This document shows positions 4,707 to 44,575 of a stretch of 44,812 bases of DNA, piece by piece. Source of the DNA: a virus. The notes beneath the pieces are model-generated. The model saw only the letters and a list, made by a program, of their open reading frames with translations. It was not told the DNA's origin and did not search any database. The DNA lies in IMG/VR virus record IMGVR_UViG_3300045988_116818, positions 1 through 44,812 of that record; one strand, given 5' to 3'. Within the stretch, counting starts at the first letter, position 1; each line of letters starts with the position of its first letter. A program made the position numbers and the translations under genes.

Positions 4707-5035
4707 ACAGCAAGCGCAAGGGAAAAGAGGGAGAGCTTCGCCTGGTCCACTTCCTGCGGGAGCACGGCTATGAGTGCCGCAGAACGGCACAGTACTGTGG
4801 AAAAACCGGAGAGGCGGCGGACGTGATCGGGCTTCCAGGCCTACATATCGAGTGCAAGGCCGTCGAACGGCTGAACGTTCGGGAGGCATTGAAGCAGGCG
4901 GTTAGAGACGCGGCTGCCGCCTTGATTCCCGTGGTGTTTCACAGGCACAGTCGGGAGGAGTGGCTTGTCACCCTTCGGGCGGAGGATTTCATGACCATTT
5001 ACCGAGAGTGGGAGGCCGGACGACATGACCAGTAA
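4703..5035 (+). CDS. PD-(D/E)XK nuclease, Holliday-junction-resolvase-like
   Basis: KGKEGELRLVHFLREHGYECRR...DVIG...HIECK fits the G..E....L...G ... D ... E.K resolvase-type motif arrangement. Confidence 0.6.
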   Translation: MNSKRKGKEGELRLVHFLREHGYECRRTAQYCGKTGEAADVIGLPGLHIECKAVERLNVREALKQAVRDAAAALIPVVFHRHSREEWLVTLRAEDFMTIYREWEAGRHDQ

Positions 5036-5354
5036 GACACTGCTGCGGCTGCTCGAAATGGCGCGGAGCGGATGCACAGACAGAGAGATCGGAAAAGCGG
5101 TGGGCGCTGCCCCAGCGACGGTCAGCTACCACAGGAAGAAAGCCGGAATCGAGAGGGCCCGCGGTCAAACATACCACACTCTGTACACGCTCTATGACCG
5201 GGATGGGCAGTACCTGTTTGAAGGCAGCGTGAAGGAATGCGCAAATTTCCTGGAAATTCAGGAGCACACGGTCCGGGAATATCTGTCCAGATTCCGCGCT
5301 GGAAAGAAAACGCCTGTTGAGATTTACGCAGAGCCAGTCAGGAGGATGACATGA
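5025..5354 (+). CDS. HTH DNA-binding protein (LuxR/sigma region-4-like N-terminus)
   Basis: LLEMARSGCTDREIGKAVGAAPATVSYHRKKAG is a helix-turn-helix pattern. Confidence 0.6.
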   Translation: MTSKTLLRLLEMARSGCTDREIGKAVGAAPATVSYHRKKAGIERARGQTYHTLYTLYDRDGQYLFEGSVKECANFLEIQEHTVREYLSRFRAGKKTPVEIYAEPVRRMT

Positions 5355-5626
5355 CAGCCGAAAGGCGCGCCCTGCTGGGCGACCACGAGGCAAGTAAAAG
5401 ACTGAGCGAGGCGGGGGTGCTGCTGCTATGTCCTATGTGCAGAGGAAAGGCAAGGGTGCGGAGCGAACGCTACTATCAGCCAAATGTCCGCAGAAATGTG
5501 ATCTGCACGAAATGTTTTACAAACAGCGGATGGTATAAGACGGAATACGAAGCCCGCCTCGCCTGGAACACCCGCGCGCCGATTTTGAGTGCGGAGGAGA
5601 TGGAGATACTGGAGGGGATGGAATGA
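5351..5626 (+). CDS. Lar-family restriction-alleviation-like zinc-ribbon protein
   Basis: CPMCRGK...ICTKC...EYEARLAWNTRAP matches the Lar pattern CPFCG...C..C...eAi.aWNrR. Confidence 0.6.
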   Translation: MTAERRALLGDHEASKRLSEAGVLLLCPMCRGKARVRSERYYQPNVRRNVICTKCFTNSGWYKTEYEARLAWNTRAPILSAEEMEILEGME

Positions 5627-5874
5627 AGAACCCAGGAGAATATGTTGACATTGGGGACCCAGCCTTGCAAGTCAGAACAGACGAGAATGGAAACACTGTA
5701 GCCTCTGCAACGATACAGGCGGTTGTCCTCTGGAAAGAAGATATCAAAAACCACATCATGGACGAGATCATCAAGATGTGCAAGGAGCACGGAATTACGG
5801 ACCTGTATGTGCTGAACCGGGATTTCATCCTGTCGGCTATCAAGGAGAAGATGGAAAAGGAGGCCCACCAATGA
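5623..5874 (+). CDS. Hypothetical protein
   Basis: ATGA-coupled ORF in the early operon. No motif recognised. Confidence 0.6.
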   Translation: MKNPGEYVDIGDPALQVRTDENGNTVASATIQAVVLWKEDIKNHIMDEIIKMCKEHGITDLYVLNRDFILSAIKEKMEKEAHQ

Positions 5875-6242
5875 CGCGGGAAGAAGCTGCCATCAAAAGC
5901 TGTGAGGATAGAATCAAGCACCTGAAAAGCGCGCCAACTCACCATTATGGGAAACGGCAGCGGGAAAGAGCCATTGAGCTGGAAAAGGTAAAAATAAAGG
6001 CCCTCCGCCCCGTCAGCCGGGAGCAGGTGGAGAAGGTGTTTCCTGGGTGCCCGGCATGTAAAAACGGGCCGCCGAAACTTCACATCCCAGCGTTTAGAGC
6101 TATGGCGGTATGTAATCAACACATGGATCACGAGGCTTTTGACATAGAGCTGAACAGTAAATTTTGCCTGAATTGCGGGCGGCCGTTGACGGACAAGGCC
6201 GTGGACATGGTGATGGAGAGGATGGAGGCGCTGCATGATTGA
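5871..6242 (+). CDS. Hypothetical zinc-ribbon protein
   Basis: ATGA overlap at 5871. Cys pairs CPAC ... CLNC. The 5778 start in the track was rejected. Confidence 0.6.
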   Translation: MTREEAAIKSCEDRIKHLKSAPTHHYGKRQRERAIELEKVKIKALRPVSREQVEKVFPGCPACKNGPPKLHIPAFRAMAVCNQHMDHEAFDIELNSKFCLNCGRPLTDKAVDMVMERMEALHD

Positions 6243-6549: not shown

Positions 6550-6712
6550 AATTGTGGTCTTAGCCCTGTTTGGGGCAATACTGCTACTGATGCTATGTTG
6601 CTGTTGTTATTTGGCGGGGTACAAAAAGGGAACGCAAGACATAGCCCGATTCCATAATAGCGTTTGGAAAATGGCAGAACGGGAGGCGATGAAAGATGGC
6701 AAGGGCGATTAG
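6542..6712 (+). CDS. Small Cys-rich membrane protein (56 aa; below the ORF-track cutoff)
   Basis: Manual translation: MDEIVVLALFGAILLLMLCCCCYLAGYKKG.... It overlaps both neighbours in the way coupled genes do. Confidence 0.4.
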   Translation: MDEIVVLALFGAILLLMLCCCCYLAGYKKGTQDIARFHNSVWKMAEREAMKDGKGD

Positions 6713-10820: not shown

Positions 10821-10954
10821 CCGAATGGTGTCTTGCCCATCCGTGGATGACCTTTTTCTTGCTGACTTTTGCTCTGCTCGTCATCGACGAAATAGTATGC
10901 GCGATTGCTAATGCCATTGCAAGCAAGAACAGAGACAAGCATGAGGAGGGATAG
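10817..10954 (+). CDS. Small membrane protein (45 aa)
   Basis: Manual translation: MTEWCLAHPWMTFFLLTFALLVIDEIVCAIANAIASKNRDKHEEG. ATGA overlap. Confidence 0.4.
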   Translation: MTEWCLAHPWMTFFLLTFALLVIDEIVCAIANAIASKNRDKHEEG

Positions 10955-10957
10955 CCC

Positions 10958-11188
10958 TTGAATGAGTTCCCGGATAGGCTGAGGAGGCTGAGGGAGAGTA
11001 TGCGGCCAGTTCGGAGTATGACAGTTACATCACAGCTGATGGGGCTGCACCCTGATATGTTAAGACGATATGAGCGGGGAGAAGTAGAGCCCTCAATGGA
11101 TGCGCTTTACAAGATCGCGGATTACTATGGAGTCAGCACTGACTATCTGCTGGGGCGGACAAATTTCCCGTTTGTACACAGGCTATAA
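10958..11188 (+). CDS. XRE-family HTH protein (TTG start), last gene before the terminase region
   Basis: The pattern RLRRLRESM...LMGLHPDMLRRYERGEVEPSMDALYKIADYYGVSTDYLLGR is typical of HTH_3. Confidence 0.75.
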   Translation: MNEFPDRLRRLRESMRPVRSMTVTSQLMGLHPDMLRRYERGEVEPSMDALYKIADYYGVSTDYLLGRTNFPFVHRL

Positions 11189-11344
11189 CTTTTCATCATC
11201 TCAAAAATATAAGGCGGTAATTCCCACAAAAGTGGGAGCAGAAAAGTCAATGTATGGGAAAATGGGAGTGTGGGGGCGTATCTCTGCACTCCCACTCCTT
11301 TTCCCCTCTGCCCGGAGGTTCACCTCCGCCTCCGGGCCTCCTAT

Positions 11345-11423
11345 GCCCTTGTAGCCCAGTAGGTAGAGCGGCCCAGGAATATGGGTGATTGAAGCGTCGC
11401 CGGTTCGAGTCCGGTCAAGGGCA
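11345..11423 (+). tRNA. tRNA-like cloverleaf with an aberrant anticodon arm (possible pseudo-tRNA or part of a larger ncRNA)
   Basis: Acceptor GCCCTTG/CAAGGGC is a perfect 7 bp. The D arm GCCC-AGTAGGTA-GAGC and T arm GCCGG-TTCGAGT-CCGGT are canonical. The anticodon stem GCCCA/TGGGT closes only 6 nt (GGAATA) with no U33. The variable region is 12 nt. Confidence 0.4.
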
Positions 11424-11746
11424 AATTTATACCCTTTTGGGGAACTAGATAAGCTGCTCCAAAGGCCACGGAGCTGGCAGTGGAAAGACACTATACCGGT
11501 AAGCCTACAGCGTCTGATGGAACCGGAGAAGAGACATGACGCCCGCCTGTCATGGAGGCGGAAGCGGTGGCAGCTATGACCTGCCCCGAAATGCGGGGTC
11601 GCTCCCATCCGTGGAAGCCGGACGCTTGTGTAGGGCGATAACTACCAGCGCTATCCCGCTGAAAACTGCCGTAGGACAGTGAAACTCCGAATGGAATGTA
11701 GCTGACTGATTGATGGTGTGACAATTTAAGCGAGAAGCGCACATAT
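11424..11746 (+). ncRNA. Structured spacer between the two cloverleaves (candidate core of a large phage ncRNA)
   Basis: There are no credible ORFs. Hairpin CATGAC/GTCATG (11535-11554) has loop CCGCC (11543-47) complementary to GGCGG (11557-61). A second hairpin is CCCCG/CGGGG (11584-98). Confidence 0.35.
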
Positions 11747-11820
11747 ACGGGTGTAGCTAAATGGAGAGCGCCGGTCTCCAAAACCGGAGGTTGGGGGAAC
11801 AGAGCCTTCCACCCGTGCCA
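11747..11820 (+). tRNA. tRNA-Trp(CCA)-like gene with a non-canonical T loop
   Basis: Acceptor ACGGGTG/CACCCGT is a perfect 7 bp. Anticodon arm CCGGT-CUCCAAA-ACCGG gives anticodon CCA at 11778-80. A 3' GCCA is encoded. The T arm GGGGG-AACAGAG-CCTTC has two G-U pairs and no TTC. Confidence 0.5.
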
Positions 11821-11962
11821 GGGCGCAAGTCCTTACAGAATTTCTTGGCGAAAGGCAAGTGAGAAAAGCCGAAAAACTCACAGCTCCCCCGCAAAGGGGG
11901 ATATGCCGCCCCGCAGTTGCGCGAGACGGGGGCGGGGCAAAAAATGACCGAGAGGTGGTGAC

Positions 11963-12352
11963 ATGCCGAATGAACAGAACCTTATACCGATGGACCGGCG
12001 AAGCAAGAGTGAAGCAAGAGAACTTGGGCGAGAAGGTGGCCGTGCATCCGGCGCGTCACGACGGCGAAAGCGTAGCCTGAGAGAAGCGGCAGATTTGTAC
12101 CTCTCTCTCCCGGTAGCGGATAAGCGGGCATGGAACAAGCTGGCCCGTGATGGCGTAGAACCGGAGGACGTGGATAACCAGATGGCAGTTATCGCTGGCC
12201 TGACCCTAAAGGCGGCCAAGGGCGACGCAAAGGCGGCGAAGGTGCTGTTTGACTTGTTGGGAGAGCAGGGGGCGGCGGGTGTCGGCAGTATGCAGGACAT
12301 GGACGACCCCATCACAAAAAGTCTAAAAGAGGAAGCACAGAATGGGATTTAG
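11963..12352 (+). CDS. terS: Terminase small subunit
   Basis: RSKSEARELGREGGRASGASRRRKRSL plus a C-terminal helical region. It overlaps the large subunit start. Confidence 0.8.
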   Translation: MPNEQNLIPMDRRSKSEARELGREGGRASGASRRRKRSLREAADLYLSLPVADKRAWNKLARDGVEPEDVDNQMAVIAGLTLKAAKGDAKAAKVLFDLLGEQGAAGVGSMQDMDDPITKSLKEEAQNGI

Positions 12353-13556
12353 CGAAAAACAAAAAGAGATCATGAGATTTCCGTACTCAAAATATGACGC
12401 ATTGATCTGCGACGGCGCGGTGCGAAGCGGGAAAACCTCTATCATGTCCCTGTCTTTCTTCCTGTGGGCGATGGGTAATTTCAACAACTGCGCATTTGCA
12501 TTCTGTGGAAAATCCGTGGGAGCGGTGGAGCGGAACATTGTGACGCCGCTGCTATCTGTGGTTTACCTGCAACAGAATTTTGACATTCGATACAACCGGG
12601 GTGATCATGTGATTATTGCCCGGCGCGGACACCGGGAGAACCGTATTTACCTGTTCGGCGGCAAGGACGAGAGCTCCTATACCCTGGTGCAGGGCGTGAC
12701 GCTGGCCGGGGTGCTGTTGGACGAAGTGGCGCTGATGCCGCGGTCTTTCGTGGAGCAGGCCCTTGCTCGGTGCTCTGTGAAAGGGGCCAAGCTGTGGTTC
12801 AACTGCAACCCGGAGAACCCGCAGCACTGGTTCCGACAGGAATGGATTTTGCGACCAGAGAAGCACAACGCACTGCATTTGCACTTTCTGATGGATGATA
12901 ACCCGGCGCTGGATGAGGCCACCAAAGAGCGCTATCGATCTATGTACAGCGGTCTATTTTACGAGCGTTATATCATGGGGCGCTGGGTCATGTCTGAGGG
13001 CTTGATCTACGATATGTTTGACCCGACGGAAAACGTGTACCGAGATCGGCCCGTTGGTATGTATGACCGCTCTCAACGATATATAGCCTGCGACTACGGA
13101 ACGACCAACCCGACGGTGTTTCTGGACATTTATGACGACGGAGAGATCATCCGGGTAGATCGGGAATATCGGTGGGACAGCCGGAAAGAGCGGCGGCAGA
13201 AAACAGATCAGGAGTACGCCGATGATTTCCTGGAGTTCATGGGGGAGAGAGATGCAACTGTGCTAGTAGACCCTTCCGCGGCGTCGTTTATCGTGGCCCT
13301 GCGGCAGCGCGGGGTTTATGTCCGAGAGGCAAACAATGATGTGTTGGACGGCATTCGGCGCATGAGTGTATTAGTAAAGCGTCGGGAATTGCTGGTGCAT
13401 GAGGAATGCAGCGGCTTTTTGGATGAGATCGGAACTTATATGTGGGACGACAAGGCGGCCATGCGCGGCGAGGAAAAGCCAGTCAAGCAGTGCGACCATG
13501 ACATGGACAGCTGCCGTTATTTTTGCAACTATCTTCCGAACTGGAGGTTTGAGTAG
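12342..13556 (+). CDS. terL: Terminase large subunit (PBSX/XtmB type)
   Basis: Walker A-like CDGAVRSGKTS, Walker B LLDEVALM, and a C-terminal nuclease region (ACDYGTTNPT...DHDMDSCRY). Confidence 0.93.
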   Translation: MGFSEKQKEIMRFPYSKYDALICDGAVRSGKTSIMSLSFFLWAMGNFNNCAFAFCGKSVGAVERNIVTPLLSVVYLQQNFDIRYNRGDHVIIARRGHRENRIYLFGGKDESSYTLVQGVTLAGVLLDEVALMPRSFVEQALARCSVKGAKLWFNCNPENPQHWFRQEWILRPEKHNALHLHFLMDDNPALDEATKERYRSMYSGLFYERYIMGRWVMSEGLIYDMFDPTENVYRDRPVGMYDRSQRYIACDYGTTNPTVFLDIYDDGEIIRVDREYRWDSRKERRQKTDQEYADDFLEFMGERDATVLVDPSAASFIVALRQRGVYVREANNDVLDGIRRMSVLVKRRELLVHEECSGFLDEIGTYMWDDKAAMRGEEKPVKQCDHDMDSCRYFCNYLPNWRFE

Positions 13557-15310
13557 TGTCCAGGCGAAACAGAAACCGCCCCAGAGGCGAACAACCGAAC
13601 ACAGAGGCGGTGACCATCCAAGACGCATTCAGCAATCCCTTGTTCCGCCTTGGTTGGGGAAGTCAGTCCCCACTAGAGGCCACGGAGTACCCGCTGACCC
13701 GCATGACAGACAACTATGCTTTGCTGAATAGCCTGTATCGCGATAATTGGGTGGTACAGAACGTGGTGGGCCTGATGGTGGATGACATGCTGCGGGAATG
13801 GTACGCCCTGAAAGGCAGCTACACCCCGGAAGCAACAAACGCATTAGAGCGTGTGGAGCAGGAGACACGCATCCGGGACCGCATCAACGAGGGCCTGCGG
13901 TGGGGACGCTTGTACGGAGGTGCCGCTGGACTGATCATGATTGATGGTCAGGACGACCTCTCCAAGCCCTTGGACATGGATATGATCTATCCCGGCAGTT
14001 TTAAAGGACTGTACATTCTCGACCGCTGGCAGGGGATTACGCCCAATATGAACTTAACCTTTGAGGGCGGAGACCCGGTACCGGAGAGCTATTCCATCAC
14101 CGATGCCCATGGGAATACGGTAGTCCATGTTCACCACTCCCGCGTAGTTCGATTTACCGGCCGGGACCTGCCGTATTTGGAGCGGGTAGCAGAGATGTAC
14201 TGGGGAGAGTCCGAAGTAGAATCGCTGTACAAGGACGTGACAGCCCACGATAACGTATCGGCCAACATGGCGGCTCTCACTTTCCAAGCTAACATCAACA
14301 CAATGGAGGTCAAGGGGCTGGAACAGCTGTTCTCAATCGGCTCCAGTCAGGCCCAGCGACGGTTCTGGAATGTCATGCAGGCACAATCCGTTATGAGGTC
14401 CAACTTCGGCACTCAGCTCGTGGAACAGGGCAATCAGATCAAGAATACTCAGTACACCTTTACTGGACTGCAAGAGGTCTACGAGTCCATGTGCCTGAAC
14501 TTGTGTGGTGCCTCTCACTACCCCATGACAAAACTGTTCGGGCGGTCTCCGGCGGGCATGAACGCCACCGGGGAAAGCGACCTGAAAAACTACTACGACT
14601 ATGTGGACAGCCAGCGAGAGGCCAAGCTGCGGCCCGCCCTGCAAAAGATATTGCCAGTGCTGTGTATGAGCGCATGGGGATTTGTACCGGACGATTTAGA
14701 TTTTACATTCCCACCCCTGTGGACCCCCACGGCCACCGAGACGGCAGAGATTGCGCTGAAAAAGGCCCAGGCCATCCGGGACACCTTCCAGGCCGGGTTG
14801 TTCCAGGCGGACACCGCCATGAAGGAGCTGAAAAAGCTGGAAGAGGAAACCGGGATGTTCGGCAGTATCAGCGACCAGGAGATCGCCGCCAACGCGGGGA
14901 AGACCTACCAGGATGTGACGGCCCTGCGGGACCCATTGATGGGACTGGGATATGAGTCGCCCGAAAGGGAAACAGGAGGAGAGGAAGCCACCCCTTTTGA
15001 GGGGACCGTCCAGGACGCGGCTGCGCAGGACTACAGCCCAAACCAGCCCCGGGACAAGAATGGCAGATGGACAAGCGGCGGCGGGAATGGTAAAATAGGA
15101 AAGACAAAGTACGCGCCGTCTCCCCAAAGGAAGCATGGGGGGATTCAGTTGAAGCCCAAAACCTACGCCCGGCTGACGGGGGTACTGAACACCAGGTTCC
15201 CCAATTTGCCAGAAGGTGCGATCCGGCAAATACGAGATGCGAAGCATGTATACCAAATCAGAGCAGACGGATATGGCGGATTTGAATTGCTGTCTAAGCG
15301 GAAGATATAG
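13556..15310 (+). CDS. Portal protein (DUF1073 family), GTG start
   Basis: The N-terminal FSNPLFRLGWGSQSP...DNYALLNSLYRDNWVVQNVV is typical of DUF1073 portals. It sits immediately after terL. Confidence 0.88.
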   Translation: MSRRNRNRPRGEQPNTEAVTIQDAFSNPLFRLGWGSQSPLEATEYPLTRMTDNYALLNSLYRDNWVVQNVVGLMVDDMLREWYALKGSYTPEATNALERVEQETRIRDRINEGLRWGRLYGGAAGLIMIDGQDDLSKPLDMDMIYPGSFKGLYILDRWQGITPNMNLTFEGGDPVPESYSITDAHGNTVVHVHHSRVVRFTGRDLPYLERVAEMYWGESEVESLYKDVTAHDNVSANMAALTFQANINTMEVKGLEQLFSIGSSQAQRRFWNVMQAQSVMRSNFGTQLVEQGNQIKNTQYTFTGLQEVYESMCLNLCGASHYPMTKLFGRSPAGMNATGESDLKNYYDYVDSQREAKLRPALQKILPVLCMSAWGFVPDDLDFTFPPLWTPTATETAEIALKKAQAIRDTFQAGLFQADTAMKELKKLEEETGMFGSISDQEIAANAGKTYQDVTALRDPLMGLGYESPERETGGEEATPFEGTVQDAAAQDYSPNQPRDKNGRWTSGGGNGKIGKTKYAPSPQRKHGGIQLKPKTYARLTGVLNTRFPNLPEGAIRQIRDAKHVYQIRADGYGGFELLSKRKI

Positions 15311-15999: not shown

Positions 16000-17406
16000 A
16001 TGTCGAGCCTGAACCGCGCCCCCAATGGACGGGAGCTGGAAAAACTCATCTCCATCTTTTTGAAAGCTGAGACGGACATCATCAACGAGATCGGGCGGCT
16101 ACACTCCCAGGGGTTGGTAGACTACCACACTGTGGCCGCGCTGGAACGGGTTCAGGCCATCCTTCGCAAGATGGAGAGCGACAGCTGGACTTATGCGCCC
16201 CGAATGATCGAAAAGATGTTCTATGTGCGTGTCCCAGAGGCCAGGCGCATTGAGGGCGATACCCCAGCAAAACACCGTATGGGCTATATCAATGCCATGT
16301 CGCTGACCGGAGAGCAGACGGCCATTGTGGACACGCTGGTGCAGAACCTCATGGGAGAGATTACGGACGCCGCGATGGTGGCGATGGCAACTGTCCAGAG
16401 CGCCGTTGTGGGCCGCACAGAACCGGACGTCTACCGCCGGGTGGGATTGGAGCAGGTAGCCAATCTGCAGGCCGCGGGGCGCGGCGTAAATGCCGCTGTG
16501 CCTGGTTTTGTGGAGGCCTTGCGCCGGGAGGGAATCACGGCGTTTGTAGATAGAGCGGGGCGCAGCTGGAGCCTGCACACATATTGTTCTATGGTGACCC
16601 GCACCACGTCCCGGCAGGCGGAAGTGATGGCGGTGCTGACGGCAGACCCGGAGCAGGACCTGTATCAGATCAGCAGACACGGCACCACCTGCGGCCTGTG
16701 TGCCCCTTATGAGGGCCGGGTATACTCCAAAAGCGGAACCAACCCGGATTTCCCACCCCTGGCGGACGCATTTGGGAAAGTGGACCCCAACGGGCCGAAC
16801 ACACTGACAAACACCTATTTGAACTTGCATCCCAATTGCCTACATTCCCTCCTGCCGTGGACGCCCACGGGAAGATCGGAGGAAGAAATCCAGAAAATCA
16901 AGGACTTTTCCAATCCCGCCAAGAACCCGTACAGCGTAGACCCTCGAACCCAAAAGCAGATTGACGCCTACCGGGCAAAAGAAACGGCCCGCCGTCGGTA
17001 TCTTGCGGATTACCGCCAGTGGGAGCGGTATCGGATGACGCTGGGCGATTCTGTCCCAAAAACCTTTCAGACTTGGCAGACGCATAAGAGCGCCGGTGAT
17101 GCCAAATACAAGGAATGGAAGAGGTTGTATCGTTGGGAGAACAAGCGCCTCAGTTTACAACCACTGATCGGGCAAAGGACATCGACTGGAATAGAGATTA
17201 CGGGTATCTCAAGACACGCTGTTGACAGGGCTGTTTCCCGTGGATTTGATATGGAAAGTGCATTAGAAGCCTTGCGGAATCCTATGAAAGTTGGTACAAT
17301 CAAAATAGACGATGATGGTATGCCAAGTCAAAAATTTCGCGGAGCAAATGCTGAAATTGTTGTGAATCCAGAAAACGGCAATATCATTAGCGGATGGAGG
17401 AAGTAA
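16000..17406 (+). CDS. MuF/SPP1-gp7-type head morphogenesis protein with a C-terminal DUF4258-like (RelE-fold) toxin-like domain
   Basis: The core motif ISRHGTTCGLCAPYEGRVYS is typical of minor capsid/MuF proteins. The C-terminal ~75 aa (GISRHAVDRAVSRGFDMESALEAL...AEIVVNPENGNIISGWRK) resembles DUF4258. Composition drops in GC from about 17150. Confidence 0.8.
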   Translation: MSSLNRAPNGRELEKLISIFLKAETDIINEIGRLHSQGLVDYHTVAALERVQAILRKMESDSWTYAPRMIEKMFYVRVPEARRIEGDTPAKHRMGYINAMSLTGEQTAIVDTLVQNLMGEITDAAMVAMATVQSAVVGRTEPDVYRRVGLEQVANLQAAGRGVNAAVPGFVEALRREGITAFVDRAGRSWSLHTYCSMVTRTTSRQAEVMAVLTADPEQDLYQISRHGTTCGLCAPYEGRVYSKSGTNPDFPPLADAFGKVDPNGPNTLTNTYLNLHPNCLHSLLPWTPTGRSEEEIQKIKDFSNPAKNPYSVDPRTQKQIDAYRAKETARRRYLADYRQWERYRMTLGDSVPKTFQTWQTHKSAGDAKYKEWKRLYRWENKRLSLQPLIGQRTSTGIEITGISRHAVDRAVSRGFDMESALEALRNPMKVGTIKIDDDGMPSQKFRGANAEIVVNPENGNIISGWRK

Positions 17407-17740: not shown

Positions 17741-17782
17741 ATACCGAACCCACGCCCGGAACGACGGGCGGGAAGGACCGAA

Positions 17783-17826
17783 CGAGGTCAGTTATTGCAG
17801 GTTTTGCAATAGCTGGCCTCGTTTTT
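17783..17826 (+). terminator. Rho-independent terminator closing the toxin/immunity insert
   Basis: cgaggtcagttattgca-ggtt-tgcaatagctggcctcg forms a 17-bp stem with two U-G pairs, followed by TTTTT. Confidence 0.75.
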
Positions 17827-38934: not shown

Positions 38935-39026
38935 CTACTCCTATAACGGTTTTTCCGCGATTAGCTTGAGTATAAATTGCACGAAAAAACTGTTGTTTAA
39001 TGATTGTGTGTAAAAAATAAACCTAG

Positions 39027-39047
39027 AATTTCACATAAAATTTCACA
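39027..39047 (+). promoter_or_regulatory. Right arm-type repeats AATTTCACA x2 (12-bp phasing)
   Basis: AATTTCACA at 39027-035 and 39039-047, in the same orientation as the left pair and adjacent to the int stop. Confidence 0.55.
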
Positions 39048-39059
39048 TGAAAAACCGGC

Positions 39060-40076
39060 TTACTCGTCCGGCAACAAGGTCTCTATATAATCCTCAATTT
39101 TTTTGTCATATTCTTTTTCTTTTTCCTTAATCGTATGTTGATAAGTAGTTTTTAACATATTGTTTGTGGCATGTCCCATGCGCTTCATGGAATATTTGTC
39201 AGGAACACCTACGGCAAGCATTGCAGAAGCATTCACATGGCGGAGATCGTGGAATCGGAAGTGTGAGAGACCTTGCTTGGCGCAGATGCGGGAAAAACCG
39301 CTATATATAGCTTTCCCGGATGCATTTATAATGTGATCTCCTTCGTGCGGATGTTTTCTGAATAGAATCTGGATATAATTTGGAAGATGTACCCGTCGTG
39401 TTCCACTGTATGTTTTTGTACCTTTTTCAATGGGACCATCCTCGCCCATTACAATAGCACGACGGATATTTAGATAATCGCCATCAATGTCTTTCCACTC
39501 TAAACCTAATATCTCAGATTGGCGCAGTCCAAGACAAATGGCCAGCATGATCGGGAGTTCATATTTTGTGCCTCTACAGCCTGCTATGATCGCTTTGAGT
39601 TCTTCTTCCGATGGGATTTGAATTTCGTGTTTAATTTTTGCAGGCAGAGTAGTTCTAAGAGCCATTGACGGACGATACTCTTTAAGGACTGCACTTAGAA
39701 GCCCATGAGCGTTTTGTATGGTTTTTGGCGCTTTAGATTTTGACAGTTTGTTGACCCAGCGTTGGACCTTTTCCTGCGTTAAATCGTTTAGGTTTGTTTT
39801 TTCAATATCCCCCAACATCGACTGTAGAGTTCTATACCCTTTGATTGTAGATGGAGACAAAATGGAGGACTTGCTTTCAATGTAACGATCAACAGCAGCG
39901 GTAAGTGTTAAAGATGTCGGGTCACGGTTATCTTCAATGGCTTTTGTTTTCAACCCCGCAGCCCAATATGCTGCTTCTTCCTTCGTATGAAAGGTTTTAT
40001 TGCTCCTCTTTCCGTCAACCATGATTTGGACATACCATTTTCCAGACGGAAGTTTCTTTGGCTCTGGTATTCGCAT
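39060..40076 (-). CDS. int: Tyrosine recombinase/phage integrase
   Basis: An N-terminal SAM-like domain (KKLPSGKWYVQIMVDGKR). The catalytic region has LRQSEILGLEW..., HDLRH, MGHAT and a Y in LKTTYQH. GGAGG RBS precedes ATG 40076. Confidence 0.92.
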   Translation of the reverse strand: MRIPEPKKLPSGKWYVQIMVDGKRSNKTFHTKEEAAYWAAGLKTKAIEDNRDPTSLTLTAAVDRYIESKSSILSPSTIKGYRTLQSMLGDIEKTNLNDLTQEKVQRWVNKLSKSKAPKTIQNAHGLLSAVLKEYRPSMALRTTLPAKIKHEIQIPSEEELKAIIAGCRGTKYELPIMLAICLGLRQSEILGLEWKDIDGDYLNIRRAIVMGEDGPIEKGTKTYSGTRRVHLPNYIQILFRKHPHEGDHIINASGKAIYSGFSRICAKQGLSHFRFHDLRHVNASAMLAVGVPDKYSMKRMGHATNNMLKTTYQHTIKEKEKEYDKKIEDYIETLLPDE

Positions 40077-40098
40077 TATAAAACCTCCTAAGATCACG

Positions 40099-40129
40099 CC
40101 GCCAGGGGATTCCTGACGGCGGTTTTTTT
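40099..40129 (+). terminator. Hairpin plus T7 tract oriented for plus-strand transcripts (antisense to int)
   Basis: CCGCCAGG-ggatt-CCT(gac)GGCGG is followed by TTTTTTT. No U-tract is present on the minus strand. Confidence 0.35.
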
Positions 40130-40130
40130 A

Positions 40131-41066
40131 TTAGATCGACAAAGCGTCTGTGAAAGCACCCATCGCATATCTGATGTTCTCCGCCGTTGCAAGGCCGAAA
40201 GGATTTTCGGAAGAAACTGTCCTTTTAAAAAACGACAACAACTGTTCAAGGGAAAAACCCATGGATTGTCCTTTTTCCTCCAAATGCTTTGCCATATAAT
40301 AATTTTGCACAGTGGCGCTATCTCTCAACAATGTATCAACCTGCCTTGTCCACATGAAAAAGACAAGGCAATAACAAGCTAAGGATTGTTTATATTCTCC
40401 AATGCTTTGAAAGAATGTAGAAGCATTTGAAAGCACCGCCGGATATTTTGCCCTATCGTTTTCCCGATAGCAAGTTTTCATGTCCTCTTCCAATAGGCTC
40501 TTTATCAGATCTTCGGGAGAAGCGTTCGGATTTTCGTTTTTCTTCTTGATGAGGCGGTAGTGAGAGATACCCAAACTATACCGCTTATTTATGTCGAAAA
40601 CTTCATAGGGAACTAAAGCAAATTTTCCTTTTTCTGTAAGCTTGTATTTTCCTACAGGAAAGATTGCTTCCAACTCATCAATCGGGATATTGTTTAAAAT
40701 CCGTTGTACCAGTTCTCCCTTTTTTCCAGTTGCTTTTAGTTCGTGTTCTTCCAGTATGGCCTTTAGATCAGGAATAGTTTTCAAAGAAATATTGGTTTCT
40801 ATATCTGATATTTCCAGATACCCGCCGTCCAAAAGGCGGTGGAGAGCAGGCAGCACGTTCCTTCCAAATTCGCTTTGACTATAATAAGATGGAATTTCAT
40901 AGTCGGTCTGTTTCTTGGCCCAAAATCGGAGCGCCTCGGAATCTAAGTATGATATTTCAGCGCCGGCTAGGCGGTCGTCTCCCTGCTCGGACGCAGAAGG
41001 AACACCATCTCTAGATGGAGGACTATCTGTTCCTCGGTTTCTTCTTAAAAAATCCAGTAAACCCAT
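40131..41066 (-). CDS. SAP-domain-containing protein (accessory, AT-rich)
   Basis: LKTIPDLKAILEEHELKATGKKGELVQRILNN is a SAP motif. The rest of the protein was not recognised. Confidence 0.7.
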   Translation of the reverse strand: MGLLDFLRRNRGTDSPPSRDGVPSASEQGDDRLAGAEISYLDSEALRFWAKKQTDYEIPSYYSQSEFGRNVLPALHRLLDGGYLEISDIETNISLKTIPDLKAILEEHELKATGKKGELVQRILNNIPIDELEAIFPVGKYKLTEKGKFALVPYEVFDINKRYSLGISHYRLIKKKNENPNASPEDLIKSLLEEDMKTCYRENDRAKYPAVLSNASTFFQSIGEYKQSLACYCLVFFMWTRQVDTLLRDSATVQNYYMAKHLEEKGQSMGFSLEQLLSFFKRTVSSENPFGLATAENIRYAMGAFTDALSI

Positions 41067-41419
41067 CAGAACATCCTTTGCACAATGGCCTTGTAGATTT
41101 TATCGTCAACCTCCAACAAAGACCGCTTTCCGTCTTTGAACATGACCGCAAGTGTGATAGTGCCTTTACTTTTGGCTGACAGGCTCCCAGCCAGCATTCC
41201 GACCGGTCCCAGCAGGGCGCCGCCGACAATGCCGCGGGCCACGCCGGAGGTAGCACTTTTGCTGATCTCCTCAGTGATGACCTCGTAGGAGTCAATGGCG
41301 GCCTTATCCAGGAATACGTTCTCGCTCCAGCGACTACTGACCATGATCTGCGGCTGTCCGCCTAGATTGCCGACAGGCTTTCCCATGTAATCTCCTGCAA
41401 TAACCATGTTTTTTGCCAT
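41066..41419 (-). CDS. Small protein with a glycine-zipper hydrophobic segment
   Basis: GGAGG RBS precedes ATG 41419. A glycine-zipper-like TM segment reads GVARGIVGGALLGPVGMLAGSL. ATGA-type overlap with the SAP gene. Confidence 0.6.
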   Translation of the reverse strand: MAKNMVIAGDYMGKPVGNLGGQPQIMVSSRWSENVFLDKAAIDSYEVITEEISKSATSGVARGIVGGALLGPVGMLAGSLSAKSKGTITLAVMFKDGKRSLLEVDDKIYKAIVQRMF

Positions 41420-41563
41420 AGTGCATGCCTCCTTACCACCCACCGGTGGCTTTTCACTTAAATGGAAATCCATTATCAAAGTAAAATTGTGGTATAAAAG
41501 TAAAGACTACTAGATATAGGTCAATACAAAATATAAATGGAAAGAATTGTGAAAATCTGCTGA

Positions 41564-41592
41564 TTGCCTTATATTCTCCTCGGTGCTATGAT
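41564..41592 (+). promoter_or_regulatory. Promoter TTGCCT-17-TATGAT for the small plus-strand operon
   Basis: TTGCCT at 41564-69, a 17-nt spacer, TATGAT at 41587-92. Confidence 0.5.
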
Positions 41593-41606
41593 ATTATCAA
41601 ATCACT

Positions 41607-41620
41607 AGAACAAATGTTCT
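41607..41620. promoter_or_regulatory. Gram-positive LexA/DinR (Cheo-type) SOS box AGAAC-AAAT-GTTCT
   Basis: GAAC-N4-GTTC with perfect 5-bp arms lies 15 nt downstream of the -10 element. Confidence 0.55.
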
Positions 41621-41644
41621 CAAACGAGGAGGGGCAACTGGAAT

Positions 41645-41800
41645 ATGGATGAACGAGATATGACCTGCGGTGAATTGCTCAAAGAAAAAGAATTAAAAAC
41701 AATTCTCAAATTTGCTATAATGAATCTTACAAAGGAAGAAAAAGAAACTCTTTTGCGCTGGATTAAAGAAATGAAATCAAGTAAGGAGAAAGATCAATGA
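41645..41800 (+). CDS. Small Lys/Glu-rich protein (51 aa), first gene of the SOS-box operon
   Basis: GAGGAGGGG RBS. Manual translation: MDERDMTCGELLKEKELKTILKFAIMNLTKEEKETLLRWIKEMKSSKEKDQ. Confidence 0.45.
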   Translation: MDERDMTCGELLKEKELKTILKFAIMNLTKEEKETLLRWIKEMKSSKEKDQ

Positions 41801-41828
41801 ATATCAGCTACCAGTAATTGACCCAGAT

Positions 41829-42098
41829 ATGATTTTTACAAACAACCGAGCGGAAGTAGTTGAACGCATTCAGACCGGAGAGTGGGATTGTTCGCTCTGT
41901 CCGCAAATGTTCGGTTATGAGTCTGGGTGCTATGGGCTTTTCGTCCAAGATACGACCACAAAGAGAACGCGAGAGGAAGCCGAAGTGTGGCTTTCAGGTA
42001 TTGAGCGGTCTGGCCGAAAAGCGTTCAACAGTGAGCCATTCAATCCCGATGACTTTTTGGATAAACTGCCGGAGTCTCTTTATCCCAATCAAATCTGA
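41829..42098 (+). CDS. Hypothetical protein, candidate antirepressor
   Basis: 89-aa ORF downstream of the SOS-box promoter. Contains CSLCPQ...GC. Confidence 0.5.
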   Translation: MIFTNNRAEVVERIQTGEWDCSLCPQMFGYESGCYGLFVQDTTTKRTREEAEVWLSGIERSGRKAFNSEPFNPDDFLDKLPESLYPNQI

Positions 42099-42222
42099 GG
42101 ATATAGCCATTACCAAGCTCCGAAATCCCGGTATAAGCCCAACCAAGATCAATAAAACTCTGGATGATTTTGGAGGTCGATTCCTCGTCTCGATTTTTTG
42201 TAACTACTCGTTCAATTTTCAT
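42040..42222 (-). CDS. Small protein co-transcribed with the repressor
   Basis: ATGA overlap with the stop of the CI-like gene. Its 3' end overlaps the convergent ORF 41829..42098 by 59 nt. Confidence 0.45.
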   Translation of the reverse strand: MKIERVVTKNRDEESTSKIIQSFIDLGWAYTGISELGNGYILRFDWDKETPAVYPKSHRD

Positions 42223-42533
42223 TCTCTGGACTCCTTAATCTTTTTGATTCGCTCTTTAACTAAAAGCAATTCAGCATCGCTCATTCCTTCAAGTTCACTT
42301 AAAATATCCTTTGTCAAATCGTCCATCCCGGCCTCCGTTTGGAGGTCGGGATTTTTTTCGGCCCTGAACTGTTCTATAGCCGCTCTCAGTTTCTTTTCTG
42401 TTGTACCATGAGGCTTTCCTCCATTCAAAATATTTGCGATTGTGGTTTGGTGGACAACTGCTTTCTTGGACAACTCATAGTTTGTGATTTCTAATTCCTC
42501 GATCTCGCGCTTAAGCCATTGTGAAAAGTCCAT
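42219..42533 (-). CDS. CI-like XRE-family repressor (HTH only, no peptidase domain)
   Basis: ITNYELSKKAVVHQTTIANILNG is an HTH motif. The gene is divergent from the Cro-like gene and encodes only 104 aa. Confidence 0.8.
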   Translation of the reverse strand: MDFSQWLKREIEELEITNYELSKKAVVHQTTIANILNGGKPHGTTEKKLRAAIEQFRAEKNPDLQTEAGMDDLTKDILSELEGMSDAELLLVKERIKKIKESRE

Positions 42534-42587
42534 AGAAATTACCTCAAAAATTGGTCTAAATTTAATCTAGAAATAATCTAAAAAAGA

Positions 42588-42616
42588 TTGACATTACTCT
42601 AAAAATACTCTATAAT
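42588..42616 (+). promoter_or_regulatory. Perfect consensus promoter TTGACA-17-TATAAT (early rightward)
   Basis: TTGACA at 42588-93, a 17-nt spacer, TATAAT at 42611-16. The spacer and -10 element contain two TACTCTA(A/T) motifs. Confidence 0.7.
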
Positions 42617-42683
42617 TAGTCTTGCAATAGGGCGCAAAAACCCGTCCACCCCGAGATACAGAAGGGTGAATATGAAAGGCGTG

Positions 42684-42711
42684 TACTCTAACTTGTAGCA
42701 AAATTAGAGTA
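42684..42711. promoter_or_regulatory. Candidate operator palindrome TACTCTAA-N12-TTAGAGTA
   Basis: The half-site TACTCTAA also occurs at 42595-602, 42606-613 (TACTCTAT) and 42740-747. Confidence 0.5.
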
Positions 42712-42763
42712 TCACAGTTTGGAGTAGTTGTCAACGGAATACTCTAATTTAGGAGGTGATATT

Positions 42764-42991
42764 TTGTCGTTTGCTGAAAATCTCTCTGTCTTGCAAGCCA
42801 AGCACAGGGAAACAAACTACCGGTTAGCAAAGGAAATTGGCGTACATCAATCCTCTATTGCCAACTGGAAATCCGGAGTAACCCCGCACCCCAGGCATAT
42901 TCGTATAGTGGCAGAGCATTTTGGCGTAACTGTAGACGAGCTTCTTTCAGAAGACAGCAGCACCAACGGAGAAAAGGAAGCCCTCCAATGA
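42764..42991 (+). CDS. Cro-like XRE-family HTH protein (TTG start)
   Basis: AGGAGGTG lies 5 nt upstream of TTG 42764. NYRLAKEIGVHQSSIANWKSG is an HTH motif. Confidence 0.8.
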   Translation: MSFAENLSVLQAKHRETNYRLAKEIGVHQSSIANWKSGVTPHPRHIRIVAEHFGVTVDELLSEDSSTNGEKEALQ

Positions 42992-43054
42992 TAGAGGGCA
43001 GCAGAATCAAATCCAAAAATAACTGCGCACGCAAATAGAGTGAGGGGAGTGAGA

Positions 43055-43234
43055 ATGATGGACACTTTTAGAGTAACAAAAGACAAAATGTTTCTTGGAG
43101 AAAAAGAGATCGTGTGTTGCACTGGGTTCAAAATCATCGCAAAAGCAGGCGAAGACCCGGAGGTGGAGCTCCGAGTCATCGTTGAAAATGTAGATATTGA
43201 GAATTACGGTGCAGTCCCTATGCAAACGGAATAG
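43055..43234 (+). CDS. Hypothetical small protein
   Basis: GGGGAG RBS precedes ATG 43055. Confidence 0.5.
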   Translation: MMDTFRVTKDKMFLGEKEIVCCTGFKIIAKAGEDPEVELRVIVENVDIENYGAVPMQTE

Positions 43235-43553
43235 CGGACTTGATTTTGCCGAGCCAATCAAGGATTTGAGAAATACCGCCCGGAAATCTCTGTTCCATGT
43301 AGATGATTCCTTCATCTTCAAGTTGGAAGCCTCCGAGGACAAATCTCTTCACGAACCCCTTCGACTTGAGTTCGTTTAGCGATTCTAAAAAGTCCGGTAA
43401 TCCAGCATCTTTCGGAAAAGATTCAGGCCATTGGTCGCGGGAAGAAAAATCTTTTGCAGTCTTCTTCGATGCCCCGGATTCTCTCCTTGCGAGATATTCC
43501 TTATAAATCAAACAAATAGCCTTATCTGCATCTTTTGTTAGGTTAATTTCCAC
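43218..43553 (-). CDS. Hypothetical protein, possibly YjcQ-like winged helix (GTG start)
   Basis: GGGAGGTGAAA RBS precedes GTG 43553. LTKDADKAICLIYKEYLARR. Confidence 0.5.
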   Translation of the reverse strand: MEINLTKDADKAICLIYKEYLARRESGASKKTAKDFSSRDQWPESFPKDAGLPDFLESLNELKSKGFVKRFVLGGFQLEDEGIIYMEQRFPGGISQILDWLGKIKSAIPFA

Positions 43554-43679
43554 AGTTTCACCTCCCTTCTTTCTGGATTGTAACACAGAAAAGCATGGAG
43601 GGAAAAGCTAAATTTCAAAAAAACGTGAGCTGTTTGCACATTCTGAAGATCAAGGTGTATGAGGGGGGGGTAAGCATCA

Positions 43680-43862
43680 GTGCTGACAGTGCGCTTACTG
43701 ATTTATCTAATCATGTCATTAGCGTTTATGTTTTCTTCTCTAATATCATGCGACATTATAAAGCAACATCCGGAGAGCAACAAACCTTGGCTCATTGCGC
43801 TACCGTCACTGATACTGACGGTCATGCTCTTGGTGGTCATGGTACATGACTTACTTTCTTAA
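43680..43862 (+). CDS. Possible small two-TM membrane protein (GTG start)
   Basis: GAGGGGGGG lies 8 nt upstream. Two hydrophobic helices. Convergent with the next gene. Confidence 0.35.
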   Translation: MLTVRLLIYLIMSLAFMFSSLISCDIIKQHPESNKPWLIALPSLILTVMLLVVMVHDLLS

Positions 43863-44282
43863 ATCTTTTTGCATAGAGATTACCAAATTTTCTGTAATTT
43901 CTTCATATTCAGAAAGTAACTTTGAAAAATTTGGGGGTGGATTCAATTTCATAGTGGAAATAAGTGTGATGCTATCTTTATATGAGCGTATCAGTTCAGC
44001 AGATCCAGGTGACGCGAATAGAAGCGCTTTTGTATAAGCGTCCATAAATCTGGTCACCTGTTGTTGATTGAAGGTATCAGAAAATTCACCGCCTACTTTC
44101 AGCAGTTCGTAATAGGCAGAAATCGTCTCCTGAAGTATCAATTCTGCCTGTTTTGATTTCCGTGCTCCACGTTGGGTTATAAAAGCCGAAAGAACGGAGC
44201 AAATAGAAACGGCAGCAATAGAAACTACAGATGCAATGATAGTGGTGTTAATAGATATCGCATTAACTAATTCATTTTCCAT
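43851..44282 (-). CDS. N-terminally membrane-anchored protein (accessory; superinfection-exclusion/Abi-type candidate)
   Basis: AAAGGAGGT RBS. A TM segment TTIIASVVSIAAVSICSVLSAFI is followed by a helical domain. It has its own promoter. Confidence 0.65.
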   Translation of the reverse strand: MENELVNAISINTTIIASVVSIAAVSICSVLSAFITQRGARKSKQAELILQETISAYYELLKVGGEFSDTFNQQQVTRFMDAYTKALLFASPGSAELIRSYKDSITLISTMKLNPPPNFSKLLSEYEEITENLVISMQKDLRK

Positions 44283-44303
44283 TTTTATACCTCCTTTGCG
44301 GCT

Positions 44304-44332
44304 ATTCTACCAAAACAGAAAGAAGGTGACAA
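44304..44332 (-). promoter_or_regulatory. Promoter TTGTCA-17-(TGg)TAGAAT for gene 43851..44282
   Basis: The minus strand reads TTGTCA (44332-27), a 17-nt spacer ending in TGG, then TAGAAT (44309-04). Confidence 0.55.
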
Positions 44333-44575
44333 TGGTATGCCAGCAAAGTGGACTGCTGACCTTCTTGGCGAGACGCACTTGATCGGGCGGCACATGACCC
44401 TGGCATTCATTTGATGGAACTGAAGGAGCTGGTGTCCAGTGCATACCCGGAGGATGCCTAAAAAATCCCCCGCCGTGTTCGCAGCACGACGAGGGCAAGG
44501 GTTGAGGCACCACACGACAATCCCTTTGAGAGCAGTATACAGCCTCCAAAGGGAAAAAGCAAGGGGGAGGATTTT

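Follow-up and report, generated by a model that had tools for sequence, protein, structure and literature searches.

Only two large RNAs, ROOL and GOLLD, are known to be associated with phage tRNA islands, and structures determined by cryo-electron microscopy exist for both of them. Phages and prophages of Firmicutes encode ROOL, frequently within or next to tRNA islands and with no associated protein gene; the RNA contains pseudoknots, and its function is unknown (PMC5737381, PMC12286853). Co-transcription of ROOL with tRNAs has been proposed (PMC5737381). GOLLD is phage-borne as well and lies near tRNA islands, with tRNAs sometimes located in its linker (PMC12286853). The present analysis concerns a non-coding gap of 774 nucleotides (nt; positions 11189-11962) in a viral contig of 44,812 nt (IMG/VR record IMGVR_UViG_3300045988_116818), the whole of which is referred to as the window. 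The gap lies between a gene for a helix-turn-helix (HTH) protein of the HTH_3 family and the terminase genes terS and terL, and it is an RNA-gene island of a phage, situated at the border of the early and replication genes and the packaging genes. It harbours a structured RNA of 272 nt (11475-11746, + strand), in the following called the core RNA, which is a member of a large, pseudoknotted family that covaries in a strand-specific manner and has no match in Rfam. The core RNA belongs among the structured RNAs of phage tRNA islands and is set apart from ROOL and GOLLD by model search. Within the explanation of the gap as an RNA island, we consider it probable (about 0.6) that the core RNA is released from a tRNA-punctuated precursor as a stable RNA that acts in trans.

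The core RNA shares with ROOL the location in phage tRNA islands and the possession of a pseudoknot, and like ROOL and GOLLD it is found in phages or prophages adjoining tRNA genes. It is, however, about half the size of ROOL (~580 nt) or less, does not match the ROOL model, and shows much stronger primary-sequence conservation in its single-stranded segments. The likeness to GOLLD consists in the combination of a conserved with a variable part and in the occurrence of a tRNA in the linker, here a tRNA-Met in L003 and L047 (L-numbers denote the collected loci, with L001 being the Flavonifractor phage Chenonceau and L002 the Flavonifractor phage Castelnaud). GOLLD exceeds 800 nt and has its conserved part in the 3' region, whereas the core RNA keeps its 5' segment and pseudoknot most widely. 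In the tRNA cluster of phage T4, stable non-tRNA RNAs are co-transcribed with the tRNAs, and tRNA-punctuated processing is also known for mitochondrial transcripts and for MALAT1/mascRNA. These systems resemble the present one in that a non-tRNA RNA lies between tRNA genes; in the known cases RNase P and RNase Z (ribonucleases P and Z) set the ends, whereas here the ends are suggested by geometry. The T4 RNAs are smaller, and we know of no report of a pseudoknotted family of the core-RNA kind among them. The put RNA of phage HK022, finally, measures ~65-70 nt and folds into two stem-loops ahead of a long operon, where its conserved unpaired bases contact RNA polymerase. The core RNA, too, is a structured phage RNA ahead of a long operon, but put is neither flanked by tRNAs nor present in tandem copies.

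A search of Rfam 15 with window positions 10900-12300 and with the members in L008 and L091 gave no relevant family match even at E ≤ 10, so that neither the ROOL model (RF03087, gathering score 99.1 bits) nor the GOLLD model (RF01998) recognised any of the three, and the suggestion of the first-pass annotation that the gap might contain an RNA of one of these classes did not hold. The same tool, applied at the gathering threshold, found a true ROOL RNA with 338.4 bits in L124 and, in other loci, tmRNA (transfer-messenger RNA), int-alpA, DUF3800-VIII and gut-2. For the three members, this search also ruled out tmRNA, RNase P RNA, 6S RNA, Y RNA and riboswitches; in the window, tmRNA and RNase P RNA gave no Rfam match and ARAGORN called no tmRNA. 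Two further resemblances were pursued by eye. A likeness of GGAAAG...ACAAU to CR-I/CR-IV of RNase P RNA was dismissed, as the flanks form no P4-like helix, and a tmRNA-like tag frame after the pseudoknot was rejected, as the frame continues without a stop in the minimal member L068. In L124, a match to the 5' motif of the core RNA lies beside ROOL (6555-6599) but reaches only 18.9 bits with the covariance model described below, and was treated as a chance match.

The core RNA is widespread. A 24-mer from the part shared with Castelnaud has exact matches in 73 IMG/VR contigs, an 18-nt degenerate motif of the 5' end occurs in at least 120, and nhmmer matched the element in 72 of 86 new loci. A covariance model (R1), built from 20 short members, recovers the window copy on the + strand as the sole match in the window (11471-11748, 164.5 bits, E = 6e-42) and matches ~150 viral loci in IMG/VR. 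When R1 was applied to bacterial genomes, one genome per species, members were found in 8 of them, namely Muriventricola aceti, Flavonifractor plautii ATCC 29863, Colidextribacter sp., Vescimonas sp., Dysosmobacter sp., two metagenome-assembled genomes (MAGs) of Oscillospiraceae and one MAG labelled Collinsella. As far as searched, the family is restricted to Oscillospiraceae phages. Its members measure 187-434 nt. No description of the family was found in the literature, although an unnamed candidate in a viral csRNA catalogue of 10,006 entries might overlap with it (PMC10690425). L006 carries tandem copies (1137-1513 and 1754-2030), and the copy near position 984 of L148 appears to be truncated after the first helix by unrelated sequence that continues as a long stretch resembling an open reading frame (ORF).

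All parts of the core RNA are given here on the + strand. It begins with a near-invariant single-stranded 5' segment (UGGCAGUGGAAAGACACUAUA, 11475-11495; family consensus UGAC-N-GUGGAAAGACACUAUA), of which the positions that were free to vary are conserved across all distinct sequences. Its core, GUGGARAGACACUAYRCY, served as a search pattern and is invariant by the selection of loci; it is also present in all of the first 73 loci, which were retrieved with a different 24-mer. A complementary target of this segment was sought elsewhere in the window, and none was found beyond chance. The segment is followed by an H-type pseudoknot (11496-11542) that comprises helix H1 (11496-11499/11523-11526), helix H2 (11510-11514/11538-11542) and a purine-rich loop 3 (AGAAGAGACAU). 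H2 occurs in the family as GCGUC/GACGC, GUGCC/GGCAC, GCGCC/GGUGC, GUUUGG/CCAGGC, CCUUG/CGAGG and UUGCAAUU/AAUUGCAA. Two hairpins supported by covariation come next. H3 (11543-11561) pairs CCGCC with GGCGG around the loop UGUCAUGGA, is replaced in other members by CCGUCC/GGACGG, GUCGC/GCGAC or CCCCU/AGGGG, and has UGG before the last base of the loop in most members read (5 of 7 distinct loops). H4 (11565-11588) consists of CGG-U-GGCAG/CUGCC-CCG with the loop CUAUGAC and varies as CGGUGG/CCACCG, GGCGGCAG/CUGCCGC and CGUGGGAG/CUUCCCACG. It is this region in which the first-pass annotation had placed a hairpin at 11535-11554 whose CCGCC loop might form a pseudoknot with GGCGG. The hairpin is not conserved, its 5' arm varying without compensation across homologues, and the two pentamers pair with each other as H3, a simple hairpin that is conserved. 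The actual pseudoknot is the one further upstream (11496-11542).

A variable linker (11589-11647) separates these elements from the 3' domain. In the window it is a 59-nt module with the hairpin CCCCG-AAAUG-CGGGG, which uses the 3' strand of H4, followed by GGGGUCGCUCCCAUCCGUGGAAGCCGGACG...ACCA; the same module is present in 31 other loci and in a distant Vescimonas copy, while the linker ranges from 0 to ~230 nt across the family and contains a tRNA-like element in L030 and L048. The 3' domain (11648-11740) is closed by a helix of GCGCUAUCCCGCU and AGCGAGA-AGCGC, with internal loops GAAAACU and GUGACAAUUUA and a variable apical hairpin (11668-11717); the helix has also been given as GCGCUAUCCCGCU/AGCGGGA(A)GCGC around the conserved internal loops GAAAACU and GUGACAAUCUA. 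The tail ACAUAU (11741-11746) is identical to the usual 5' leader of island tRNAs. A second interior type exists, in which the 5' segment and the 3' domain are kept and the region of pseudoknot and hairpins is replaced; as read from the sequences, the substituted region can be folded on paper into a pseudoknot of identical topology, in which CUGGC/GCCAG crosses GGUCGC/GCGGCC. Two long-range contacts were considered and set aside. Pairing of GUCA in the H3 loop with UGAC in the 5' segment or in the 3' loop is contradicted by divergent members whose H3 loops lack GUCA, and a possible pairing of the 5' GUGG with CCRC upstream of UGAAAAC would compete with the better-supported closing helix of the 3' domain.

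A covariation check on collected homologues, which the first-pass annotation had called for, supports this fold. In a MAFFT alignment of 21 diverse 5' domains that was not fitted to the structure, 93.5% of cells pair and 14 of 22 pairs change on both sides, compared with 4.1 ± 1.5 after shuffling (0 of 500 shuffles), and structures slid by 1-3 columns pair at 36-46%. H1 is paired throughout (100%), with two of its four pairs changed on both sides from G-C to A-U, and H2 is 93.6% paired with double changes in three of five pairs; for H3 and H4 the corresponding fractions are 4/5 and 5/7. A first MAFFT alignment of 20 full-length members had given 27 cells with changes on both sides versus 11.3 in the shuffled control (0 of 500). 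In the model-fitted alignment of 68 distinct rows, which leans toward the structure and includes split hits, changes on both sides affect 18 of 35 pairs and 121 cells, the latter versus 28.9. The closing helix of the 3' domain is recovered in single-sequence minimum free energy folds of many members, and double changes in it were seen by eye (GUGC/GCAC in L102, UGU/ACA in L068); at the base of the apical stem, 3 of 6 pairs change on both sides in MAFFT. The frequent G.U and U.G pairs are consistent with transcription of the + strand. That the family and its fold are real appears to us highly probable.

The surroundings of the core RNA are equally regular with respect to tRNAs. All 124 tRNAs called by ARAGORN within 1.5 kb of a family member share its strand, the common upstream neighbours being Ile(GAU), Gln(UUG), Arg(CCG) and an odd '???' tRNA and the common downstream neighbours Thr(UGU), Gln, Met and Trp. 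Distances are short and recurrent: the 3' end of tRNA-Arg lies 1 nt before UGAC in 5 loci, and after the closing helix tRNA-Thr and tRNA-Trp start at 6 nt and tRNA-Gln at 8 nt. AUAU or AUAC occupies positions -4 to -1 in ~30 of 68 distinct island tRNAs; since the tail ACAUAU of the core RNA equals this usual leader, cleavage by RNase P would be expected at 11746|11747. Where no tRNA follows, the RNA is often (~25 loci) succeeded by a 36-nt hairpin, GCCGCUCCUCGCCGCAUGAGGCGGGCGGUGGC plus ACCA, which folds as a 12-bp (base pair) minihelix resembling an acceptor/T arm, with a discriminator-CCA tail and a loop that lacks the T-loop signature. Examples are found directly after the RNA in L038 and just before position 3001 in L001. 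Such a CCA-ended minihelix might be acted on by RNase P, the CCA-adding enzyme or a synthetase, or serve as a decoy for one of them.

We propose that rightward transcription downstream of a terminator-like hairpin (11263-11304) yields a single precursor of the island, probably including the late genes as well. This precursor would be punctuated by the tRNAs and tRNA-like stubs, as suggested by the geometry of the junctions, namely the tRNA gaps of 1 nt and 6-8 nt and the shared AUAU leader. RNase P would cut at the AUAU|A junction between 11746 and 11747, and the cuts behind the upstream tRNA-like elements would be made by RNase Z or a 3' trimming enzyme. An RNA of ~270 nt would thereby be freed as a discrete, stable molecule acting in trans, as has been proposed for ROOL and GOLLD. 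For processing and action in trans taken by themselves, we regard the odds as even. The invariant single-stranded segments suggest that the core RNA may bind a conserved macromolecule of the host or the phage.

The gap as a whole is a mosaic of separately exchangeable modules on the + strand and not one RNA. From 5' to 3' it comprises a terminator-like hairpin, a tRNA fossil, a non-canonical tRNA, the 272-nt RNA, a tRNA-Trp and a 118-nt hairpin module, after which terS begins. The initial idea of a large phage RNA is hence retained in so far as a conserved structured RNA occupies a tRNA niche of the ROOL/GOLLD type, while its extent shrinks from 774 to ~272 nt within a mosaic; for the notion that the tRNA-like parts are structural modules of this RNA we found no evidence, and they look like neighbouring genes or processing signals. 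Isolated phages match the gap only piecewise, and the matching pieces differ from phage to phage. Positions 11259-11304 (the hairpin) and 11818-11935 (90% identical) have counterparts in Chenonceau, positions 11480-11588, 11645-11672 and 11715-11743 in Castelnaud (ON453903, element near 22.4-22.6 kb of the record), and in both phages the matches lie 3' of a small 'transcriptional regulator' gene and 5' of terminase genes of differing types. Module-by-module BLAST against all collected loci likewise gave every piece its own distribution. In the deposited genomes of Chenonceau (L001 2750-3233) and Castelnaud (L002 2857-3357), 'hypothetical protein' coding sequences called by PHANOTATE overlie the RNA island.

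Hairpins of the first-pass annotation are present at 11222-11237, 11263-11294, 11310-11337, 11584-11598, 11886-11900 and 11905-11938. The one at 11310-11337 (+ strand) is a 9-bp hairpin (GCCCGGAGG...CCTCCGGGC) with an alternative inner pairing that aligns with GGAGGTTCGATTCCTCCCGGTGGCTCCA of Chenonceau; its sequence equals the 3' end of an intact tRNA-Thr in L055 and L067, and it is probably the remnant of a tRNA T-arm and acceptor. Directly 5' of the core RNA, alignments place a hairpin GCUCC-AAAGGCCAC-GGAGC (11456-11474, + strand), the place of which is taken elsewhere by tRNA-Arg or by a tRNA-like stub, that is, a T-arm plus the 3' strand of the acceptor. The 3' hairpin module (11821-11938, + strand) contains GGGC-GCAA-GUCC, GUGAG...CUCAC, CCCCC-GCAAA-GGGGG, AUAU and then a helix GCCGCCCC...GGGGCGG. 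It is found in 11 viral loci and is 90% identical to its counterpart in Chenonceau, which is preceded by a CCA-ended minihelix; in Muriventricola aceti two of its stems show G.U to A-U and C-G to A-U changes, and a different terS follows. In L163 (Flavonifractor plautii ATCC 29863), a tRNA-Arg-like gene is located ~100-250 nt 5' of the RNA, between ...GGAGCUGAC and UGACUGUGG, and has UGAC on either side. It resembles an insertion that duplicated a short junction, and hints at a way in which tRNA modules travel within these islands.

The islands of this family collect several orphan RNA motifs. The motifs int-alpA (RF02996), DUF3800-VIII (RF03075) and gut-2 (RF02990) from Weinberg et al. 2017 are found in them, beside or within family members; they differ from the core RNA in being single motifs of 48-71 nt, and none overlaps the window copy. 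The int-alpA RNA lies downstream of the island at L001 3177-3246 and L008 7124-7193 (49.6 and 51.8 bits), that is, ~60 nt past the 3' module and before an anti-repressor gene in Chenonceau and ~1.1 kb past the RNA in L008. DUF3800-VIII is found in or just after divergent members of two Oscillospiraceae genomes (L194 2198-2261, L196 3073-3137), and gut-2 occurs twice in L139 (8717-8764 and 14290-14338). The ROOL-bearing locus L124 is a viral contig with an island of 17 tRNAs and carries a full ROOL RNA and a tmRNA side by side (4773-5438 and 5658-6081).

At gathering thresholds, Rfam finds two tRNAs in the whole window (11345-11423 and 11747-11817), with 41.5 and 49.8 bits against a gathering score of 29 bits for the tRNA model (RF00005). 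The two cloverleaves recognised in the first-pass annotation are thus present, and its view that they are aberrant rather than ordinary tRNAs was borne out, the first having a 6-nt anticodon loop and the second a non-canonical T-loop. Cloverleaf 1 (11345-11423, + strand) has intact acceptor and T arms, a 12-nt variable region and no encoded CCA. Its arms had been described as perfect; this holds for acceptor and T arm, not for the D arm, as Rfam flags a non-standard pair in both cloverleaves (a C.A mismatch in the D stem here). The anticodon stem GCCCA/UGGGU closes the loop GGAAUA, as had been noted, and a functional decoder, with a 7-nt loop and U33, is not what we find. ARAGORN calls this cloverleaf alone, as 'tRNA-??? 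(aa)' with a two-base anticodon, which corresponds to the 6-nt loop. Cloverleaf 1 recurs nearly unchanged and with its loop conserved in 8 related contigs, where U-A to U.G changes in the acceptor stem keep the pairing. Its body resembles tRNA-Ile, with an anticodon arm one base below canonical, and a tRNA-Ile(GAU) occupies a similar upstream spot in other loci (59 versus 50 nt before UGAC). We infer that cloverleaf 1 is a tRNA derivative that would be unable to decode normally and that keeps an acceptor/T-arm surface for RNase P and RNase Z. A relative in L156, 174 nt 5' of the RNA, combines an 8-nt anticodon loop (UUAAUAGG, ARAGORN 'aata') with a variable loop of normal, short length, and a further non-canonical 'tRNA-???(gcaa)' is located at L196 2621-2695; phage tRNAs with four-base anticodon loops might merit separate study.

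Cloverleaf 2 (11747-11820, + strand) is a tRNA-Trp(CCA) with the 7-nt anticodon loop CUCCAAA including U33, A1-U72, G73 and an encoded CCA. Its T-loop AACAGAG departs from the canonical UUCRANY and the D stem carries an A.G mismatch; ARAGORN makes no call. Loop, CCA and T-loop agree with the first description. The CCA anticodon, G73 and A1-U72 are what we take to be the Trp identity set of the E. coli type. The gene is present in 17 loci at ~98.6% identity, with the T-loop confirmed in two relatives that were read, and is 78% identical to a tRNA-Trp of a Ruegeria phage. The D-stem defects of both cloverleaves have no counterpart in relatives, which carry GCTC where the window has GCCC (cloverleaf 1) or GCTA (cloverleaf 2).

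Upstream, the gap is bordered by an XRE-type HTH gene of 76 amino acids (aa; 10958-11188, + strand; Pfam HTH_3 2.3e-10; phrog_8, transcriptional regulator), which lies outside the RNA. A homologous ORF of 72-76 aa ends ~250 nt 5' of the core RNA in 89 of 160 loci, and this small gene is the most constant protein neighbour of the island. The genes upstream of the gap form a recombination and replication set (RecE-like, NinB, SSB, RusA). Downstream, all on the + strand, follow a putative terS of 129 aa (11963-12352; phrog_2412; ribosome-binding site GAGAGGUGG within 11950-12352), terL (12342-13556, 404-aa TerL) and the portal gene (13556-15310). Terminases of at least three kinds are found downstream of the core RNA, as Castelnaud has HNH and a 557-aa TerL and L216 another terS. 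The gap had been described as free of coding ORFs, which agrees with codon-usage scores of -0.39 to +0.05 for its ORFs compared with 0.30 for terS and 0.40 for terL; a protein-coding reading was rejected on these scores, the lack of a family match and conservation that is not codon-like. At the other end of the window, G+C drops from ~0.55 to ~0.42 (39000-44812), and a tyrosine integrase (39060-40097, - strand) and a SAP-domain protein (40131-41066, - strand) are located there, ~27 kb from the core RNA in the case of the integrase. In this region one probably sees either the prophage's lysogeny end or the beginning of host DNA.

The hairpin at the head of the island (11263-11304, + strand, from a pattern scan) has a 14-bp stem followed by CTCCTTTTCC; its stem-loop 11263-11294 with the T tract is among the two strongest + strand terminator-like sites when the first 20 kb are scanned. 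The module recurs in Chenonceau and in L216, with a better and longer T tract in the latter. Judged by this pattern match, it probably terminates the early/middle transcription unit. When 40 kb were scanned, the strongest + strand terminator-like hairpin was one at 17780-17824, a 20-bp stem followed by TTTGTTTGTT that sits within the late region, past a 468-aa ORF (16000-17406); late transcription must either stop there or read through.

Several points weigh against release of the core RNA as one stable, trans-acting molecule. We infer its transcription, processing and stability from sequence, and a sigma-70-like promoter was looked for on the + strand of the gap and not found. Chenonceau and other related phages do without the core, which indicates that the RNA is dispensable. 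The 5' and 3' domains may be two separate RNAs: two interior types of the 5' domain combine with the same 3' domain, some loci (L117, L103) carry the 5' domain only, processing of a tRNA located in the linker would divide the molecule, and in L194 (upstream of 2085) a 3' domain directly abuts the next 5' domain. The closing helix is 95.5% paired but shows wobble changes only in MAFFT, and more generally the most conserved parts hardly vary, so that pairing rests on few compensatory changes, in this helix especially. Many members are closely related, so the shuffle statistics overstate their independence. The gap had been called heavily structured; the folding energy does not single it out (z = -2.2 and -2.8 for the + and - strands of the whole gap, respectively, and an unexceptional -0.95 for the core RNA alone), and what sustains the description is the comparative evidence. 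Finally, the D-stem mismatches of the window tRNAs, absent from relatives, suggest that this particular island may be decaying.

The most serious rival is a leader of the late operon acting in cis, in which the nascent RNA would modify RNA polymerase, an antitermination in the manner of HK022 put, or would control late transcription together with the HTH regulator. The constant location, with the regulator gene and a terminator-like hairpin on one side and the first late genes on the other regardless of terminase type, suits such a leader, as do the second strong terminator-like hairpin in the late region (17780-17824), the invariant single-stranded segments, which would fit contact with a conserved host enzyme, and a gene order (recombination, small genes, regulator, island, late genes) that recalls the Q region of lambdoid phages. 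We nevertheless consider a leader unlikely, as tRNAs adjoin both ends of the RNA and are sometimes located inside it, so that their processing would cut it from the transcript; moreover, L006 and L194 have tandem copies, the RNA is missing from related phages that share the HTH gene and the late genes, and the terminator-like hairpin lies upstream and not downstream of it. With 272 nt and swappable domains, it is also far larger and more modular than the known put or EAR elements. It is similarly improbable, in our estimate, that the core RNA represents a third, smaller class of 'ornate' tRNA-island RNA that is freed from a tRNA-punctuated precursor and acts directly on tRNAs or the translation apparatus or assembles as an RNA-only multimer. 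The conserved GUGG and loop-UGG motifs might then, for example, hold the CCA ends of phage tRNAs or minihelices, like T-box and RNase P RNAs, and either role could protect or deliver phage tRNAs in late infection.

The gap might instead be a graveyard of decaying tRNA genes and selfish recombining modules, with a core that is conserved only through recent spread and has no phage function. Its mosaic organisation with fossil T-arms and stubs, the D-stem mismatches in both tRNAs, the unusable anticodon loop of cloverleaf 1, the many nearly identical copies and the absence of the core from related phages could all be understood in this way. Divergent copies from five named Oscillospiraceae genera, however, keep the pseudoknot and hairpins with different stem sequences and an unchanged 5' segment; a fold kept despite such divergence points to selection on the fold and not to recent spread, and we regard the graveyard as quite improbable. 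A signal at the DNA level, either cos or pac for the terminase or an attP or recombination site at the tRNA genes, with incidental RNA structures, has very little to recommend it. The position directly upstream of terS, where many phages have cos or pac, the G+C-rich inverted repeats and the general use of tRNA genes as integration targets are what one would expect of it, yet the same core precedes unrelated terminase types (Castelnaud, the window, L216), compensatory and G.U changes keep the helices, which is a strand-dependent property of RNA, and the element is always oriented with the tRNAs. The attP version was rejected on the distance of 27 kb to the integrase (39060-40097). The slightest chance of all is given to a divergent or miniature ROOL or GOLLD. 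In its favour are the shared niche (phage, tRNA island, tRNA strand), the GOLLD-like layout of conserved part, variable linker and occasional embedded tRNA, and a real ROOL in the tRNA island of another scanned contig (L124), but three members failed to match at E ≤ 10 where a true ROOL scored 338 bits, 187-434 nt stand against ~580 nt for ROOL and >800 nt for GOLLD, and the supported structure has one pseudoknot and none of the multistem junctions of ROOL (PMC5737381).

The core RNA adds a third, unrelated fold to the niche of ROOL and GOLLD. It is small (187-434 nt), modular, abundant in phages of the human and animal gut and present in a phage with a cultivable host, the Flavonifractor plautii phage Castelnaud, which together make it a more tractable system for studying such RNAs. 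For annotation, gene calls of the PHANOTATE type place 'hypothetical proteins' on these RNAs in deposited phage genomes. Transfer RNAs, tRNA stubs and CCA-ended minihelices may act as processing punctuation in bacterial viruses, and a third fold in this setting suggests that structured RNAs are selected for by the niche as such, namely by being co-transcribed with tRNAs in front of the late genes.

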